A stretch of 55,037 bases of DNA from Candidatus Kerfeldbacteria bacterium. GTDB taxonomy: Bacteria > Patescibacteriota > Patescibacteriia > UBA9570. How positions within the stretch are numbered: the stretch's first letter is position 1; every line of letters starts with the position of its first letter. Positions 31,897-38,348 of this stretch are shown here, in pieces. The DNA is taken from positions 1 through 55,037 of the forward strand of contig JACQPW010000033.1 of assembly GCA_016207285.1 (NCBI GenBank). The letters run 5' to 3'. The translations under genes were made by a program, and so were the position numbers. The notes under the pieces are model-generated. The model did not search any database and was not told the DNA's origin. It worked only from the letters and a program-made list of their open reading frames with translations.

Positions 31897-33213
31897 TTAC
31901 AAGATCGGTAAGTATTTATCAATCTCGTATTGATGTACTTGGCGGCGATACTCGTTCCATTCGTGTACTTTATTGGCAATCAGCTTGGTGTGGACTTCCT
32001 CGCCTAAGGCTTCTTTGAGTAGACTGCTACCCTTGGCCAACTCAATGGCTTCCCGCAAACTGCCGGGTAAAGCGGTGATACCCTGCTTAGTCATCTCGGC
32101 ATCCGACATTTCATAAATATCAGCTTCGGTGGCTGGGCTGAGTTTATAATTCTCTGTGATGCCCTTGAGACCAGCGCGTAACATGACGGCAAAGGTTAAA
32201 TAAGGGTTAGCGGCTGGGTCTGGGCAGCGTAGTTCAATGCGAGTGGCATTGGCTTCACCGCGAGTCAATGGGATGCGAATTAAAGCCGAGCGATTGCGGC
32301 GACCCCAGGCTAAGTAGGCCGGGGCTTCAAAGCCGGGCACTAACCGCTTGTATGAGTTCACATATTGGTTAGTGACTATAACAATTTCTGGCATATGTTT
32401 AAGGACACCGGCGACATATGATTTCGCGATAGCCGATAAACCGTATTCGTCATTGCCTTCATGAAACATATTAATGCCATCTTTCCACAAACTTTGGTGG
32501 ACATGCATGCCACTACCATTTTCGCTAAAGATGGGTTTGGGCATGAAGGTGGCGTAGGCTCCATTTGAGCTCGCAATCTCTTTCACTACGTACTTATACG
32601 TCATAACGATATCACCCATGGTCAACGCATCACTATATTTCATGTTGATCTCTTGTTGGGAGGCGGCGACTTCATGATGACCACGTTCGACACTGTAGCC
32701 GAGCTTTTCCAATGCTTCTACGGTGCGTTCACGGAGAATCGTACCTTCGTGCATGGTGATTTGGTCAAAATAACCAGCTTTATCTAAGCCTTCGGTAGCG
32801 GTTTTGGACTTGAAATAAAAATACTCTAATTCTGGGCCAACAAAGTAGTCGTAGCCAAGCGACTTAGCGTAATCGACATTACGGGCCAGGACGTTGCGTG
32901 GGTCACTGTGGTAAGGGTTGCCTTGGGCATCGAACACCCGACACATGAAGCGAGCAATTTTGTGGACGTCGGCTTGTAAGGGAATGATCGCAAAAGACTC
33001 TAAAACCGGTTTTAAGACCAGGTCGCTTTCTTCAATCCGGGCAAACCCATCAATGGAAGAACCATCAAAGAAAGTGCCTTCCTCAAGATAGCGTTCTAAA
33101 CGTTGTACCGGGAAGGTGATCCCTTTCAGTTGACCTAATACGTCGGTGAACCAAAAACCGACCATCGTAACTCCTTCGGCCTTCACTTTGGCCATGATCT
33201 CTGCCTTTGTCAT
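31897..33213 (-). CDS. glnA: glutamine synthetase, type I
   Basis: 438 aa. The N-terminal beta-grasp (FWFTDVLGQLKGITFP...FDGSSIDGFARIEESD) and catalytic-domain motifs (GSGMHVHQSLW, NSYKRLVPGFEAP) align by eye with GSI-alpha enzymes. Confidence 0.92.
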   Translation of the reverse strand: MTKAEIMAKVKAEGVTMVGFWFTDVLGQLKGITFPVQRLERYLEEGTFFDGSSIDGFARIEESDLVLKPVLESFAIIPLQADVHKIARFMCRVFDAQGNPYHSDPRNVLARNVDYAKSLGYDYFVGPELEYFYFKSKTATEGLDKAGYFDQITMHEGTILRERTVEALEKLGYSVERGHHEVAASQQEINMKYSDALTMGDIVMTYKYVVKEIASSNGAYATFMPKPIFSENGSGMHVHQSLWKDGINMFHEGNDEYGLSAIAKSYVAGVLKHMPEIVIVTNQYVNSYKRLVPGFEAPAYLAWGRRNRSALIRIPLTRGEANATRIELRCPDPAANPYLTFAVMLRAGLKGITENYKLSPATEADIYEMSDAEMTKQGITALPGSLREAIELAKGSSLLKEALGEEVHTKLIANKVHEWNEYRRQVHQYEIDKYLPIL

Positions 33214-33237
33214 GTGGGTGATACGTTACTAATAAAG

Positions 33238-33309
33238 AAAAAATCTTCGCCCCCGTATACGACGAGAGTGAAGACAGCGTTGTCTTGCAATGGGTGTACG
33301 ACATTGTAC
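33238..33309 (-). promoter_or_regulatory. glnA leader: two hexaloop hairpins (ANTAR-target-like) overlapping an intrinsic terminator
   Basis: On the - strand RNA, P1 is GUAC-AAUGUC-GUAC (33309-33296) and P2 is AGAC-AACGCU-GUCU (within 33286-33271). Both hexaloops have A1 and G4. The terminator is UCUUC-A-CUCUC-[GUCGUAUAC]-GGGGG-C-GAAGA-U6 (33274-33238). Its 5' arm shares 4 nt with the 3' arm of P2. Confidence 0.55.
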
Positions 33310-33315
33310 CTAGGT

Positions 33316-33343
33316 AGTATAACGGGTTAGCTGGTTTTGTCAA
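33316..33343 (-). promoter_or_regulatory. strong sigma70-like promoter for glnA
   Basis: On the - strand: TTGACA (33343-33338), 16-nt spacer, TATACT (33321-33316). The predicted TSS at ~33309 coincides with the first base of hairpin P1. Confidence 0.6.
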
Positions 33344-34346
33344 AAGTGGCTCGAAGTTTACGTAAAGCTGCTAGTACCTCGGCCTGGGTCTTGGCATGCT
33401 GAATGCCGAATCCGCTCATGCTATAAGGTAAATTGATTAGGTTTGGTTGCTGTTGTGCCACGAGTAGCGTTTCAACTAACGCGCGTTGTACAGTTGCATC
33501 CTCGACAAATTGTTGTGGGCAAAGTTCGCAGAGACCAAGGTACGCACGATCTAATCTATCAAATAATTGCCAGCGCGCTAATTTTCGTTTTAGGGTTTGT
33601 CCTGCCGGGTCATTAGCTAAGCTAGCACTTAACCGTTGTGGATCAAGAATACGTAATTCCACAAATGTGCCATACGGTGGCAGGTCATTGACTTTGGCCT
33701 GGCGGGGTACAAAGTTAAATTGTGGGTGTACTGGAGTAATACCGCGTTCCAACATCTTTACAATAATACTCGTTGGGTTGATCGCTCGGGCTGTTGCCAG
33801 AGCCGTAGCAACATCCGCCCCACCATTGATTAATTCGGGACCAAATTCATCGACCACAGCGTGATCAACGGCCTGACCCGCGAGATACATAGCTAGTTTT
33901 TTGTCTTCGGTTAACCCATTATCTTGTAGACCATGGATAATGGCATAACCAGCATCGACAATGGCATCGTACCGTTTTAATAACTCAGTGTCACCTTGGG
34001 CTCTCTTCGTTACTGTCATCGGAACATCAGCCGTGGGATCAAATTGAATCTCACCATCCGATCCGGTTGTTAAGCGTGGATCAACACCACCGACGATACC
34101 AACCGTATGATCTGGAAACAGTTCATGAATGATAGTCATTTCATAAAACACCGCTTTGTGATGAAACGGTGACACAGGTATCCGTTTGGCGTCTTCGGTC
34201 TCATGTTTGACCTGGCGGTGAGTGCGATACCATTCCTTTAAGACCAGTGGGTTTTCCGGTGTCCCAAAAAAATAGATGCGACCCTCTTCACCACGTTTAT
34301 CGGGTGTGCGCTTACGGATAGGGTCGATGTCTTTACGGTCTAACAT
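33327..34346 (-). CDS. hypothetical protein (ORFan) between the GAF-ANTAR gene and glnA
   Basis: 339 aa with balanced composition and no motif I recognise. It starts 4 nt after the GAF-ANTAR stop. Confidence 0.65.
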   Translation of the reverse strand: MLDRKDIDPIRKRTPDKRGEEGRIYFFGTPENPLVLKEWYRTHRQVKHETEDAKRIPVSPFHHKAVFYEMTIIHELFPDHTVGIVGGVDPRLTTGSDGEIQFDPTADVPMTVTKRAQGDTELLKRYDAIVDAGYAIIHGLQDNGLTEDKKLAMYLAGQAVDHAVVDEFGPELINGGADVATALATARAINPTSIIVKMLERGITPVHPQFNFVPRQAKVNDLPPYGTFVELRILDPQRLSASLANDPAGQTLKRKLARWQLFDRLDRAYLGLCELCPQQFVEDATVQRALVETLLVAQQQPNLINLPYSMSGFGIQHAKTQAEVLAALRKLRATFDKTS

Positions 34347-34350
34347 TGCA

Positions 34351-35034
34351 TTATAACGACAAAGCCAATAAGATCGCCTCGGCTACCTCCTTCATGGTTT
34401 TTTTGGTGTCCATGGATTTTTTGCGGATCAGGGCATAGGCGGCATCTTCACTCAGCTGTTGTTGTCTCATCAGCATACCTTTAGCCTTCTCCACCACTTT
34501 TCTGGTCTCGAGGGCATCTTTGAGGGCTTGAGTTTCTGACAATAATTTAGCATTATAAATCGCCCCACCTACTTGGGTGGCGATCATTTTTAGTAACGAC
34601 AAGTCCGTTTCTGGATGTTGGCGTTTTTTACGGTGTTGTACATTAATGACTCCAACCACATCACCTTTAAACATAATGGGTGCAGAGACAAAAGCTTCCC
34701 AGCGATCTTCGTCAACGTCTAAATGAGGAACAAACTTGAACCGACTATCAGCGTAAGATTTTTCTGTCAGGACTACTAACTTGTGGTGTTCGGCCACCCA
34801 GCCAGTGATACCCTCACCATACTGCATAGCTACTTTATTAATCATCTTGGGGTGGGGTATTTTTGAGGCCTTTAAAATGAGGTGATCATCCTGGGAGAGG
34901 TAAATCAAACAGGAATCCGCCTTCATCGTTTTAGACACTAAATCCACCACTTGAGCTAACACCTCATCTAAATCTAGGTTATAGCTGATGGTTTCGGTAA
35001 TGCGCTCTAGGAGTTGTAATTGTTGCTTCAACAT
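34351..35034 (-). CDS. GAF-ANTAR RNA-binding antitermination regulator
   Basis: 227 aa. N-terminal GAF domain (LDEVLAQVVDLVSKTMKADSCLIYL...GEGITGWVAE...VGVINVQH) and C-terminal ANTAR helices (LETRKVVEKAKGMLMRQQQLSEDAAYALIRKKSMDTKKTMKEVAEAIL). Confidence 0.85.
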   Translation of the reverse strand: MLKQQLQLLERITETISYNLDLDEVLAQVVDLVSKTMKADSCLIYLSQDDHLILKASKIPHPKMINKVAMQYGEGITGWVAEHHKLVVLTEKSYADSRFKFVPHLDVDEDRWEAFVSAPIMFKGDVVGVINVQHRKKRQHPETDLSLLKMIATQVGGAIYNAKLLSETQALKDALETRKVVEKAKGMLMRQQQLSEDAAYALIRKKSMDTKKTMKEVAEAILLALSL

Positions 35035-35057: not shown

Positions 35058-35390
35058 ATGAATCCTCAAGTGACCAGTCGCAAATTTGGGATCGCTGCTG
35101 CCATCGTGACTCTATGGCTCTTTTTACATCAGACCCTGGCTTTTATCATTGCCGTGGTGCTGGGGACTACTAGTTCTAGCTATAAAGATGAACCAGCTAC
35201 CATTACATATTTGGTCTTGTCGGCTTTTGGTGTCTTACTTGGTATTGCTAGTCTGACATTGAGCGCCTTAAATCTCATGAAGGATACTAAAGGCAAGTGG
35301 CTAGGAATTGTGTCCATCATTATCACCTTACTTTGTTTGGCAGCTACCATTATTGTGGCCGTTTGGTCCTCGGTTGATACCTGGGGTTAG
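35058..35390 (+). CDS. small 3-TM membrane protein, hypothetical
   Basis: 110 aa with three hydrophobic helices and no recognised family. Confidence 0.5.
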   Translation: MNPQVTSRKFGIAAAIVTLWLFLHQTLAFIIAVVLGTTSSSYKDEPATITYLVLSAFGVLLGIASLTLSALNLMKDTKGKWLGIVSIIITLLCLAATIIVAVWSSVDTWG

Positions 35391-35399
35391 GTCTTCACC

Positions 35400-36104
35400 T
35401 TAAAAATGTTGCGCTAAAAAAGTTTGCAACCATGGATCTGGTTGTTGTTTGAGTGCTGCCCAGATATTCGCTGCGGTGATTGTTCCAGCCCGCAAGACAA
35501 TGGCTTGGTCAGCGATATAGTTGGCTTCGGCTAAATCATGCGTGACATACAGCACCGGTAGTCGCAGAGCGGCTAGTTGTTGTTTTAATAACCGTACTAG
35601 TTCAACCCGTAACAGCGCATCGACGCCAGCAAACGGTTCATCAAACAATAAAATTTTTGGTTGATAGACCATGGTGCGGGCTAACATCACCCGGCGTTGT
35701 TCACCACCACTCAACTGATGTGGGTAGCGCTTTAAAACAGCGGTCAGTTGGAGTTGTGCAGCTAGAGTGTTTACCGCTTGGGCAATCATCACCGGCGCTT
35801 GTTTGCGGAGTTTCAAGGGGTAGGCGATATTGTCCGCGGCAGTGAGATGCGGCAACAGGGTGTTGTCTTGTTCAACGTATCCCAATGAGCGTTTTTCTGG
35901 TGCCAATCCATCGAGTGGCAGGTTATTTAACTGGATTGTACCTTGATACGATTCTAAGCCAGCGATGCAGCGTAGCAAACTAGTTTTACCGGAGCCCGAT
36001 GGACCAATCAGAGCAGTGACTACATTTGGTTGCACCTGAAAAGACAGTTCTGATAATATCAGCTGATCATTTTTAGATAAAATCAGGTGATCAACGGCGA
36101 GCAT
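35400..36104 (-). CDS. thiQ: ABC transporter ATP-binding protein (thiamine importer by context)
   Basis: 234 aa. Walker A GPSGSGKTS, signature LSGGEQRR, Walker B LLFDEP. It is the last gene of the riboswitch-controlled thi operon. Confidence 0.75.
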   Translation of the reverse strand: MLAVDHLILSKNDQLILSELSFQVQPNVVTALIGPSGSGKTSLLRCIAGLESYQGTIQLNNLPLDGLAPEKRSLGYVEQDNTLLPHLTAADNIAYPLKLRKQAPVMIAQAVNTLAAQLQLTAVLKRYPHQLSGGEQRRVMLARTMVYQPKILLFDEPFAGVDALLRVELVRLLKQQLAALRLPVLYVTHDLAEANYIADQAIVLRAGTITAANIWAALKQQPDPWLQTFLAQHF

Positions 36105-37413
36105 AGAATACAGTAATGATGCCAGTCATGCAGCCAAGTATAATAAGCATAGCTAGGCTACCGACGGCAAAATGGTAACTGCCGATCAGTTGCAGGGCGT
36201 AGCCCATGGCCAAGGGTTGTTGGTGAGGTGTCAAATTGGTACTGATACTGGCATCGCCTAGGATGAGGATAACTCCGAAAATCACTACAGAGCGTATCGC
36301 TGGTAGTTGTAAGCGATACTCCAATTTTAATCTGTCCCAGACATGAGCGCCCAGTACTCGACTCGTTTGCAGCAGAGAGCGTCCATAGCGTTGGCGAGCT
36401 TGATGTAAAATAATCGTAGTGATTGGTAAAACTGATAATAACAAGGCACCCACTATACTGAGGTAACCTTTACCAAACAGCTGGTACCAAATAAACGAAG
36501 CGGTGATTGGTGAGATGCTCAAGAGTAGCAGGCCTAGGGTGGTGCCTAGCCGTAACAGCATCACCATACTAATGCTGATCATCAGCACGATCAGCGTAAT
36601 ACCAAGGGTACGTAACAGCGCACTACTAAATTGGCTGTTGAGTAGGGTGGTTACGTCAGTGGCTGTGATGGTCGTGATGATTCTCCTCACCAATGCCAAC
36701 AATGGCAGTAGTACTAAACCGGTGAGTAGTCCGCGCAATACTGTCCAGTACCACTGGCTGGGTGTAGCCGGTAGCGGAGTATATTGAGCAGGGACATAGT
36801 TTGGTTGGGTGAACACAAGTACAATCATGACCGTGAGTAGGATCAGAAATTGAATCGCCGCCGCCACTAAGGCTATAGTCGGTTGGTGATAGAGGTAGAT
36901 CTGTTTATACAACCATACCTCCATGGTTTGACCATGCACACCGCCGAGTTGTAACGGTAAGATGAAACTCGTAAAGCTGTAAAGGAAGATGATACCAGTT
37001 GTTCCAATGATGGCCAGACGTAGTTGTGGTAACAGTACTTGTCGGAAACGTTGCCAACGATTGGCGCCTAGTAGTTGTGCAGCGGCTTCGGTAGCTGGCG
37101 AAATGCCGTTTAAAGCTGACCGGAACAAACTATAGGCCAGTGGAACATTATAGTATCCGTAAGCCAGTAGTATAGTCGTAGGGGAATATAAGATTGGCAG
37201 CGGCAAGAGGCCTTGGGTACCAAAGGTAGCAATAAAACTAGTGGCCACAATGACTGGCGGCAGAAATACCGGCAACAGCATGCTGCCGATAAACCAGCGT
37301 GGGGCCGGTTGTTGCCACAGCCGTTCAACAACAGCCAAACCTCCGCCAATACCCAAGGCGAGCCCAACGGTAATTATTGAATACCAAAGGCTTGATTCCA
37401 ATCCTGTAACCAT
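36091..37413 (-). CDS. thiP: ABC transporter permease, duplicated-domain type (thiamine importer by context)
   Basis: 440 aa with ~12 TM segments in two halves. It lies between the TbpA-like binding protein and the ATPase. The start is uncertain, because the listed start overlaps thiB by 40 nt. Confidence 0.7.
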   Translation of the reverse strand: MVTGLESSLWYSIITVGLALGIGGGLAVVERLWQQPAPRWFIGSMLLPVFLPPVIVATSFIATFGTQGLLPLPILYSPTTILLAYGYYNVPLAYSLFRSALNGISPATEAAAQLLGANRWQRFRQVLLPQLRLAIIGTTGIIFLYSFTSFILPLQLGGVHGQTMEVWLYKQIYLYHQPTIALVAAAIQFLILLTVMIVLVFTQPNYVPAQYTPLPATPSQWYWTVLRGLLTGLVLLPLLALVRRIITTITATDVTTLLNSQFSSALLRTLGITLIVLMISISMVMLLRLGTTLGLLLLSISPITASFIWYQLFGKGYLSIVGALLLSVLPITTIILHQARQRYGRSLLQTSRVLGAHVWDRLKLEYRLQLPAIRSVVIFGVILILGDASISTNLTPHQQPLAMGYALQLIGSYHFAVGSLAMLIILGCMTGIITVFYARR

Positions 37414-38348
37414 GTGGTGTAGTCCTGTTTAACGGTGGCTGCATCTATGGTAAGAATCTCATCAGCTTTGGGTTGGATAATTTGCGTGTAGGCAGCTGGC
37501 CAGGTACTGGCATCGCCACCGACTGGAAACATCCATTGGGTAGTCGGGATTTGATTTTGCACTGCGTCGGACAGCAGGTAATCGATAAACAATTGACCAC
37601 CGGCAGTTTGATTATTACCGCTGACTTGCGCCACATATTCGGTTTGTTTCAAGTAGCCATCTGAAATCGGTATCGCAGCATAACGATCACTGCCTTCTTG
37701 ATCAATATGGTAGGCCGGACTAGTCAGGTAACTTAACACAATCGGCGCTTCACCATTTAAAAACATCGTGTAGTAAGCAGTATTCCAATCCGGTGCGACG
37801 GTTAGGGTTTGATCAGCTAAGGCTTCCCAGAATTCATTGCTGTCATCGCCGAACACCGCCTGGCCCCACAATAATAATTGCGTGCCGGGTGAGGATAAGC
37901 CCGCTTGTTCAATAATGATTTTGCCTTGATAGGTCTCGTCTTCGGCTAAGGTTTCTAAACTGATCGGTTCTGGAAATGATAATTGGGTAGTGTCATAGAC
38001 AAAGCCCACATAGCCGTAATCAAAAGCGGTTGGATTCGTAAATAAATCGGCATCACCATAACGTGCCACATCGCTGTTATCGATCCCTAGTACCACATCG
38101 GCTTTAGGTGCGGACTGTTCCAATAAAAGCTGGCTGACCATGGCACCGGTATCGGCAAAGGTGACTACTTCAAGTTGCAACCCAGATTCAGTTTCAAAAC
38201 TATCTTGGATCGCCGGTAGTAAACCGTAATCGGCCGCTAGGCTATCATAGGTGTACACCGTCAGGGTGTTATCTACTGGTGTGACCGTCTGTTGGGTGCA
38301 GCCAGTGATGAGGAGACTACCGACTGCAAGGAGAATGAGTTTGTTCAT
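37374..38348 (-). CDS. thiB: thiamine-binding lipoprotein (TbpA/ThiB family)
   Basis: 324 aa with lipobox LLITGC. LTVYTYDSLAADYGLLPAIQDSFE...KADVVLGIDN closely parallels the E. coli TbpA N-terminal region as recalled. Sits downstream of the TPP riboswitch. Confidence 0.85.
   Translation of the reverse strand: MNKLILLAVGSLLITGCTQQTVTPVDNTLTVYTYDSLAADYGLLPAIQDSFETESGLQLEVVTFADTGAMVSQLLLEQSAPKADVVLGIDNSDVARYGDADLFTNPTAFDYGYVGFVYDTTQLSFPEPISLETLAEDETYQGKIIIEQAGLSSPGTQLLLWGQAVFGDDSNEFWEALADQTLTVAPDWNTAYYTMFLNGEAPIVLSYLTSPAYHIDQEGSDRYAAIPISDGYLKQTEYVAQVSGNNQTAGGQLFIDYLLSDAVQNQIPTTQWMFPVGGDASTWPAAYTQIIQPKADEILTIDAATVKQDYTTWLQDWNQAFGIQ

Follow-up and report, generated by a model that had tools for sequence, protein, structure and literature searches.

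A predicted GAF-ANTAR antitermination switch in the leader of a glutamine synthetase gene from Candidatus Kerfeldbacteria

We analyzed a stretch of 55,037 nucleotides (nt), referred to below as the window, from a metagenome-assembled genome of Candidatus Kerfeldbacteria (Patescibacteria/candidate phyla radiation, CPR), a groundwater bacterium with a small genome. On the minus strand of the window, genes encoding a GAF-ANTAR regulator, a protein labeled here as the ORFan, and a type I glutamine synthetase (glnA) follow one another, and the leader in front of glnA is the subject of this study. The ORFan and glnA are separated by an intergenic region of 113 nt. Both identities proposed by an earlier sequence-only reading of this DNA, GAF-ANTAR and glnA, were confirmed by Pfam, and GlnA was additionally assigned to the NCBIfam equivalog TIGR00653 (490.2 bits vs a cut-off of 429.15). 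An exact-protein look-up of the window regulator returned no record, and its genomic context was taken from homologs. The features of the locus are listed below, with protein lengths in amino acids (aa) and stems in base pairs (bp).

35034-34351, minus strand: GAF-ANTAR regulator, 227 aa (Pfam GAF 5e-19, ANTAR 6e-21)
34346-33327, minus strand: ORFan, 339 aa, starting 4 nt past the regulator stop codon
33343-33316, minus strand: sigma-70-type promoter TTGACA-16-TATACT, 11/12 match
33309-33296, minus strand: P1 hairpin GUAC-AAUGUC-GUAC, hexaloop with A1 and G4, -3.2 kcal/mol
33286-33271, minus strand: P2 hairpin AAGAC-AACGCU-GUCUU, hexaloop with A1 and G4, -3.8 kcal/mol
33275-33238, minus strand: intrinsic terminator predicted by RNAfold, 6+7 bp stem, 5-nt loop, U6
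33213-31897, minus strand: glnA, type I glutamine synthetase, 438 aa (Pfam Gln-synt_N and Gln-synt_C)

The dual-hexaloop mechanism of ANTAR proteins has been defined for EutV, NasR, and AmiR (PMC3369931, PMC8934654). The sequence-only reading had proposed that a near-consensus promoter serves a leader of about 95 nt carrying two such hairpins, each with A at loop position 1 (A1) and G at loop position 4 (G4), and the promoter as well as both hairpins were found where it had placed them. The promoter hexamers (TTGACA at 33343-33338 and TATACT at 33321-33316) are the best match in the 5-kb region; the -35 hexamer lies within the 3' end of the ORFan, and the ORFan stop codon lies within the promoter spacer. 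P1 starts 7 nt past the -10 hexamer, where transcription start is expected, and is separated from P2 by a linker of 9-10 nt. The stems of P1 and P2 are 4-5 bp long.

The intrinsic terminator, GUCUUC.CUCUCGU-CGUAU-ACGGGGG.GAAGAU, ends in U6 at 33243-33238, 24 nt ahead of the glnA ATG (33213). The overlap with P2, the U6 run, and the distance to the start codon agree with the sequence-only reading, whereas the stem has 13 pairs, GUCUUC/GAAGAU (6) and CUCUCGU/ACGGGGG (7), instead of the 5+5 pairs it had described. This single hairpin was also the RNAfold centroid of the leader (-15.7 kcal/mol; -14.4 kcal/mol for the terminator in isolation). The whole 3' arm of P2 is contained in the 5' arm of the terminator (GUCUUC), and therefore the P2 and terminator folds are mutually exclusive. 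P1 and P2 are far weaker than the terminator, yet they fold first in the nascent 40-mer. As predicted from the sequence, weak early hairpins combined with a strong terminator are the layout of a default-off, protein-activated attenuator. The minimum-free-energy z-score of the whole leader was unremarkable (-0.64); the signal resides in specific alternative helices and not in overall stability.

Conservation was evaluated in 165 loci, cited below by L numbers, which were collected using the regulator protein as the sole query. Homologs of the regulator were abundant in Patescibacteria, with 44-96% identity, and glnA typically came directly after the regulator in the collected Patescibacteria loci. 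A shared plan was found 5' of glnA, consisting of promoter-like hexamers, a P1 hexaloop hairpin, a P2 hairpin of the form (A)GAC-ANNGNN-GUC(U), an overlapping terminator, and a U-run. In particular, a promoter-like pair lies at an equal distance upstream of P1 in L081, L083-L086, and L012. The sequence of the P1 stem differs by lineage (GUAC, GCAC, GGCAC, UUCGC, CCGC, UUCUUC, or CCAAAC). Among 47 hairpins of each kind, A1 was present in 45 of P1 and 42 of P2, G4 in 46 of P1 and all 47 of P2, and most loops also had A at the second position.

Seventeen leaders were aligned with plain MAFFT (alignment A2), and RNAalifold, without any prior, predicted exactly P1 and P2 from them. Cells of P1 and P2 were paired in 82.9% of cases in these 17 leaders, vs 27-48% when the partners were slid by 1-3 columns. 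Double changes were found in all six P1 pairs (e.g., CG in eight leaders and UA in eight), and the observed covariation score was reached by none of 500 shuffles. The GAC/GUC of P2 was invariant in 17/17 leaders, and P2 therefore gives no covariation evidence, for or against. The base helix of the terminator, formed by the P2 3' arm and the terminator 3' arm, was paired in 92.7% of cells in the 17 leaders, and one of its pairs shows UA to CG compensation in three lineages. Thus, the hairpins in orthologous loci are conserved, keep A1 and G4, and covary, and the earlier interpretation of the glnA leader as an ANTAR antitermination element is upheld on these points.

Covariance model R1 was built from alignment A2 and searched against 1.34 Mb of loci at a threshold of E<0.1. 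A match within 260 nt upstream was found for 26 of the 29 glnA genes near homologous GAF-ANTAR genes, and nine of these 26 loci lay outside the model seed. The search yielded 52 matches, all 52 on the strand of the regulator and downstream of it. The gene behind the match was glnA, in two glutamine synthetase subtypes, in 25 cases, glutamine-dependent NAD+ synthase (nadE) in 11, a porin-like outer-membrane protein in six, the ammonium transporter (amtB) in three, and the PII protein in one; the remaining six matches were followed by a short or unassigned open reading frame (ORF) or by no ORF. Judged by these gene assignments, the matches make up a coherent predicted regulon for nitrogen assimilation. 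The nadE, porin, and PII targets are Nitrospirota loci, where the hairpins read GGAC-AAYGRC-GUCC, and the same system appears to operate in that phylum. A search for more targets had been suggested by the sequence-only reading, and it was fruitful in the loci of relatives, with the three amtB genes and one PII gene; within the 55-kb window, no further targets of model R1 were found. The glnA leader was the only match there (67 bits, next best 12 bits).

Taken individually, the elements of the leader are not rare, and it is their combination that is. Promoter matches of at least 11/12 occurred three times in the window vs 1.07 +/- 1.03 times in shuffled sequence; with such promoters expected about once per window, the support from the promoter therefore lies in its conserved position only. 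Loose dual A1/G4 hairpins numbered about 10 in the window vs 4.2 +/- 2.3 in shuffles, and among them only the copy in the glnA leader had a terminator overlapping it on the 3' side. When this terminator was made part of the motif, 43 matches were obtained in the loci searched vs two in shuffled sequence.

Several loci showed individual variants of this arrangement. The P1-P2 linker is 21 nt in L084 (L084:6119-6138) and L085 (L085:5591-5611) vs 9 nt in the window, and the long linker holds one more small hairpin, AGCC-GAUAAA-GGCU in the case of L084, by which P1 and P2 may effectively stay close to each other. In L001 (L001:5318-6666), tandem GAF-ANTAR paralogs, 56% and 67% identical to the window protein, lie directly upstream of the glnA leader. 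The glnA of L083 (L083:4811-6250) encodes another glutamine synthetase subtype of 479 aa that is 36% identical to the window GlnA, and the regulator there is 86% identical to that of the window; from this comparison, it seems that one target gene was exchanged for another while the leader in front of it was conserved. The P1 hairpin of L055 is intact (UUCUC-AAAGAC-GAGAA). In the Nitrospirota loci (L043-L080 and L136-L167, e.g., L058:6001-9154), a GAF-only gene lies immediately upstream of the GAF-ANTAR gene, and dual hairpins with terminators come after the GAF-ANTAR gene, before the genes for nadE, a beta-barrel porin, and PII. In the Acidobacteriota loci (L015-L042 with 6-kb flanks and L104-L135 with 3.5-kb flanks), the regulator is 39-47% identical and no glnA is adjacent.

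The ANTAR domain of the regulator (Pfam PF03861) scored 74.4 bits vs a cut-off of 27.3 and covered profile positions 2-54 of 54. This part of the protein aligns ungapped to EutV (6wsh, 4e-9), Rv1626, and NasR (E 2e-9). In EutV, the hexaloop is contacted by R142, K143, K147, K149, E160, Y164, R168, M172, N173, R175, and R177 (PMC8934654), and the counterparts in the regulator are, in order, R178, K179, K183, K185, E196, Y200, R204, M208, D209, K211, and T213. Eight of the 11 contacts are identical, two are conservative (N173 to D209 and R175 to K211), and one is different. The identical set includes the Tyr that stacks on G4, the Arg, Lys, and Glu residues that hydrogen-bond the flipped-out G4, and the essential Met plug. 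Among 34 homologs, R178, K179, K183, K185, E196, and M208 were invariant or nearly so. The monomer model from AlphaFold2 (AF2), with a predicted local distance difference test score (pLDDT) of 85, consists of a GAF fold, a continuous helix of 51 residues (142-192), and a three-helix bundle. The modeled order of GAF domain, long helix, and bundle matches the coiled-coil-plus-ANTAR layout of EutV, and the protein would presumably dimerize through the long connecting helix.

For the GAF domain, the best sequence matches in the PDB were to PtsP (Enzyme I-Ntr; 3ci6 with 3e-19 and 3trc with 9e-13), followed by the NifA-like Nlh1 and NifA, and the best NCBIfam model was likewise PtsP (model positions 3-185, 3e-22), with NifA at 3e-14. 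The top Foldseek matches were also 3ci6 and 3trc (target-normalised TM-scores, 0.83-0.87); GAF domains binding cyclic AMP or cyclic GMP (cAMP/cGMP) were matched as well, with E 1e-10. Identity to the PtsP GAF domains is 22-30%. By sequence and predicted fold, the domain is thus classified as the PtsP/NifA type. The GAF domain of PtsP is required to bind glutamine, which inhibits, and 2-oxoglutarate, which stimulates, according to data from E. coli and from alphaproteobacteria such as Sinorhizobium and Caulobacter (PMC13104625, PMC4848567). This analogy suggests that the regulator is a one-component sensor reading glutamine and/or 2-oxoglutarate directly, and by the same analogy nitrogen shortage would activate it and abundant glutamine would inactivate it.

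The observations presented above comprise the elements and their mutual exclusivity, their conservation and covariation, the linkage of the leader to the regulator gene, and the conservation of RNA-contact residues. Judged from these sequences, the leader is very probably a protein-dependent attenuator of the ANTAR class in front of glnA, served by the neighboring GAF-ANTAR protein. We infer the following course of events, from the transcription start site through termination and RNA binding to the ligand and its sign. Transcription would start at TTGACA-16-TATACT, and the first ~40 nt would fold into the weak hexaloop hairpins P1 and P2. When the protein is absent, the 13-bp terminator would capture the 3' arm of P2 and RNA polymerase would stop at U6, leaving the gene off by default. 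When the GAF-ANTAR protein is active, its ANTAR domains, presumably as a dimer, would bind the P1 and P2 loops through A1 and the flipped-out G4; the bound P2 would stay closed, the terminator could not form, and glnA would be transcribed. The PtsP/NifA-type GAF input would read the nitrogen status and complete a one-component circuit.

Several points weigh against this interpretation. Among relatives, the P1-P2 linker can be as short as 0 nt and as long as 34 nt, and EutV tolerates little change in the distance between its hairpins (PMC8934654). The promoter match is statistically unexceptional on its own, the P1 and P2 stems have 4-5 bp, loose dual hairpins occur by chance, and a start of transcription 1-2 nt further downstream would cost P1 a pair. 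The leader of L055 (L055:5100-5210) is degenerate, with a heptaloop in P2 and no clear terminator before glnA. No match of model R1 was found near the acidobacterial homologs; either their targets are located at other sites, or the target sequences are too divergent for a model built from Patescibacteria leaders. In the protein, the EutV contact R177 is not conserved (T213). With 55 kb of the genome in view, the leader could in fact be served by a different ANTAR protein. Concerning the input, the ligand was assigned by comparison with PtsP GAF domains, to which identity is about 30%, and no ligand-bound PtsP GAF structure turned up for a comparison of pocket residues. GAF domains bind many ligands. 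The main uncertainty of the interpretation is the ligand and its sign.

Among other explanations of the leader, the stem-loop with U6 might be the terminator of an operon formed by the regulator and the ORFan, with the hairpins arising by chance and glnA controlled otherwise. It does lie 52-89 nt past the ORFan stop codon, and chance alone accounts for about 10 loose dual A1/G4 hairpins in the window, where an 11/12 promoter is expected about once. However, the U-tract is 24 nt from the ATG, therefore leaving no space for a downstream promoter, and the same hairpins and terminator precede glnA whatever gene lies upstream, be it the regulator (L083, L001), unrelated genes (L084, L012), or a gene on the opposite strand (L085). 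Leader and glnA are also found upstream of the regulator (L003) or away from it (L002, L090), P1 covaries, and 52/52 model matches fall on one strand. An operon terminator is thus largely refuted and extremely unlikely. Equally hard to sustain is a protein-independent riboswitch or attenuator, either a glutamine-sensing RNA or a leader peptide, next to which the GAF-ANTAR gene would be merely a neighbor. Glutamine riboswitches occur upstream of nitrogen genes in other phyla, and the folds of the leader are mutually exclusive. In contrast, Rfam 15, with its glutamine riboswitch and T-box families, gave no match in the window at gathering thresholds and none in 33100-33450 even at E<=10, and known riboswitch and leader families are therefore ruled out, Rfam having no model for this element. 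P1 and P2 are hairpins of 14-16 nt without conserved internal loops or a junction for a pocket, and the leader co-occurs with an ANTAR gene. No leader-peptide ORF was seen when the ~95-nt leader was read by eye, a systematic scan not having been made. The only conserved unpaired bases are A1, A2, and G4 of the loops, which are the ANTAR signature (PMC3369931). An effect of the regulator on translation or on the stability of the RNA, instead of on termination, is also very unlikely; actinobacterial ANTAR proteins do have targets that overlap with start sites and control translation (10.1101/660928, PMC8164766), but in every relative P2 overlaps the terminator and U-tract, the base helix covaries with the P2 3' arm, and the hairpins lie >60 nt from the ATG without covering a ribosome-binding site.

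A more serious competitor accepts the ANTAR mechanism and replaces the ligand of the GAF domain by another (a cyclic nucleotide, nitrate or nitrite, a redox signal, or a protein partner) or reverses the sign. This possibility is substantial, although we consider it rather less than probable. The ligands of GAF domains are very diverse, identity to the PtsP GAF domains is 22-30%, cAMP/cGMP GAF folds match, and reviews give GAF-ANTAR as an architecture only, without a known signal. On the other hand, the best matches in sequence and structure are consistently nitrogen-sensing GAF domains (PtsP, Nlh1, and NifA), and the inferred regulon of glnA, amtB, PII, and nadE fits a sensor of glutamine or 2-oxoglutarate.

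The stretch between the regulator stop codon and the glnA promoter is a variable slot, the flanking genes being 63-96% identical among the compared genomes. Its contents are as follows, with the identity of the regulator to that of the window.

L083:4685-4810: empty (regulator 86%)
L084:4692-6068: unrelated ORF of 458 aa (regulator 80%)
L085:4688-5518: ORF of 276 aa on the opposite strand (regulator 80%)
L012:538-1524: ORF of 328 aa without family match (regulator 63%)
L081 and L086: orthologs of the ORFan (regulator 96% and 78%, respectively)

Same-strand slot genes start 3-7 nt past the regulator stop codon in the window, L084, and L086, and about 70 nt past it in L012. The slot genes of L084 and L085 were considered as diverged homologs of the ORFan and rejected, with no detectable similarity on comparison. 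The leader is intact in all slot variants, and therefore the ORFan is a passenger and not a component of the switch; on these comparisons it is assigned to the slot as a bystander outside the predicted mechanism.

The name ORFan, given in the sequence-only reading together with a place in the switch, does not hold in either respect. The protein is an exact match to the NCBI protein HY565_01970, and its homologs, four by word search, rose to 80 clusters when a profile was used (E<1e-10 for 71). It had no match in Pfam, NCBIfam, PHROGs, or PADLOC, Pfam gave none for ten members of the family, and its AF2 model (pLDDT 52) was too poor for a fold search. The ratio of nonsynonymous to synonymous substitution rates (dN/dS) against the L081 orthologs was 0.135 for the ORFan, 0.023 for the regulator, and 0.019 for GlnA, and the ORFan evolves fast, with 75% amino-acid identity to its L081 ortholog vs 96-97% for its neighbors. 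From its substitution pattern, it is regarded as a real gene; the family it belongs to is uncharacterised. A tie of this family to glnA or ANTAR genes was rejected, the single member whose context was read (P0130) having an unrelated neighborhood.

Upstream of the regulator, three genes on the minus strand (window 35400-38348) encode a thiamine-type ABC transporter, in which the binding protein is ThiB-like (TIGR01254, 1e-66), the permease is ThiP-like, and the third component is an ATPase. The synteny of these genes with the regulator is kept in L081 and L083-L086. In L083-L086, the ATPase gene ends 14-48 nt before the regulator start, and the regulator may therefore be co-transcribed with it. 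Additionally, a hydrophobic ORF of 110 aa with about four predicted membrane helices and no family lies on the plus strand (window 35058-35390). It is divergent to the regulator, their start codons being 23 nt apart, and is present in L081 and absent in L083-L086. If this ORF is real, the promoter of the regulator must sit inside it.

The mechanism of ANTAR proteins and their link to nitrogen genes are established, and therefore the mechanism itself is no surprise. What is new here is an uncharacterised input class, GAF, and an undescribed phylogenetic context for ANTAR antitermination. GAF-ANTAR is among the commonest ANTAR architectures and makes up the majority of them in mycobacteria. According to PMC3369931, PAS-ANTAR and GAF-ANTAR proteins were without a characterised member, and later papers and a 2025 review list GAF-ANTAR as an architecture only. 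Full-text literature searches combining ANTAR with candidate phyla radiation or Patescibacteria found no linking paper, those combining ANTAR with Nitrospira gave nothing relevant, and no paper describing the predicted Nitrospirota regulon was found. We offer a concrete triplet of regulator, RNA, and target, conserved in sequence, for the GAF-ANTAR class, together with a specific ligand hypothesis of glutamine or 2-oxoglutarate via a PtsP-type GAF domain. Model R1 also predicts a Nitrospirota regulon of nadE, porin genes, and PII. We stop just short of calling it probable that PtsP-type GAF-ANTAR proteins are a widespread unrecognised class of one-component nitrogen sensors that bind glutamine and/or 2-oxoglutarate directly and switch glnA, amtB, PII, nadE, and porins by antitermination. 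If true, the large GAF-ANTAR subclass would thereby gain its first signal as well as its first regulon. In Patescibacteria with reduced genomes, the GAF-ANTAR protein might stand in for glnA control of the PII/NtrBC or GlnR/TnrA type. Few gene-regulatory circuits of uncultivated Patescibacteria can be deduced straight from the genome, and this is one of them; nearly all of its proposed components lie within ~2 kb, so reconstitution should be feasible in vitro as well as in a heterologous host.

Of the systems already known, that of Enterococcus faecalis, in which EutV/EutW act on the eut leaders, has the same dual A1/G4 hexaloops, with the 3' arm of P2 common with the terminator (PMC3369931, PMC8934654). 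As modeled, the ANTAR three-helix bundle likewise comes after a long, presumably coiled-coil helix, and 8/11 RNA-contact residues are identical. EutV differs in belonging to a two-component system with a phosphorylated REC input that controls ethanolamine utilisation, whereas the predicted system described here has a GAF input, is one-component, and serves glnA. The EutV linker is reported to be tightly constrained, in contrast to the 0-34 nt of the predicted leaders. NasR with nasF in Klebsiella and AmiR with ami in Pseudomonas are likewise antiterminators of nitrogen-assimilation operons, the former one-component and the latter controlled by a partner, and in both the site of action is a hairpin with a hexaloop that precedes a terminator in the leader (PMC3369931, PMC7496416). 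Their inputs are different, namely a nitrate-binding NIT domain or the AmiC partner, and their targets are nitrate or amidase genes and not glnA.

The theme of a nitrogen-gene regulon is shared with two further cases. Ramesh et al. 2012 predicted ANTAR leaders before genes for PII, ammonium transporters, and glutamine or glutamate synthase in Firmicutes and Deltaproteobacteria (PMC3369931), and GnfR of Geobacter sulfurreducens antiterminates at the nifH, glnK, and amtB leaders (PMC2995071). In these regulons the regulator is a REC-ANTAR protein, whereas the predicted system of Patescibacteria and Nitrospirota uses a GAF-ANTAR protein. PtsP and NifA, the closest relatives of the GAF input, differ in the output attached to it, which is a phosphotransferase in PtsP, a sigma-54 AAA+ activator in NifA, and a predicted RNA-binding ANTAR domain in the regulator described here.

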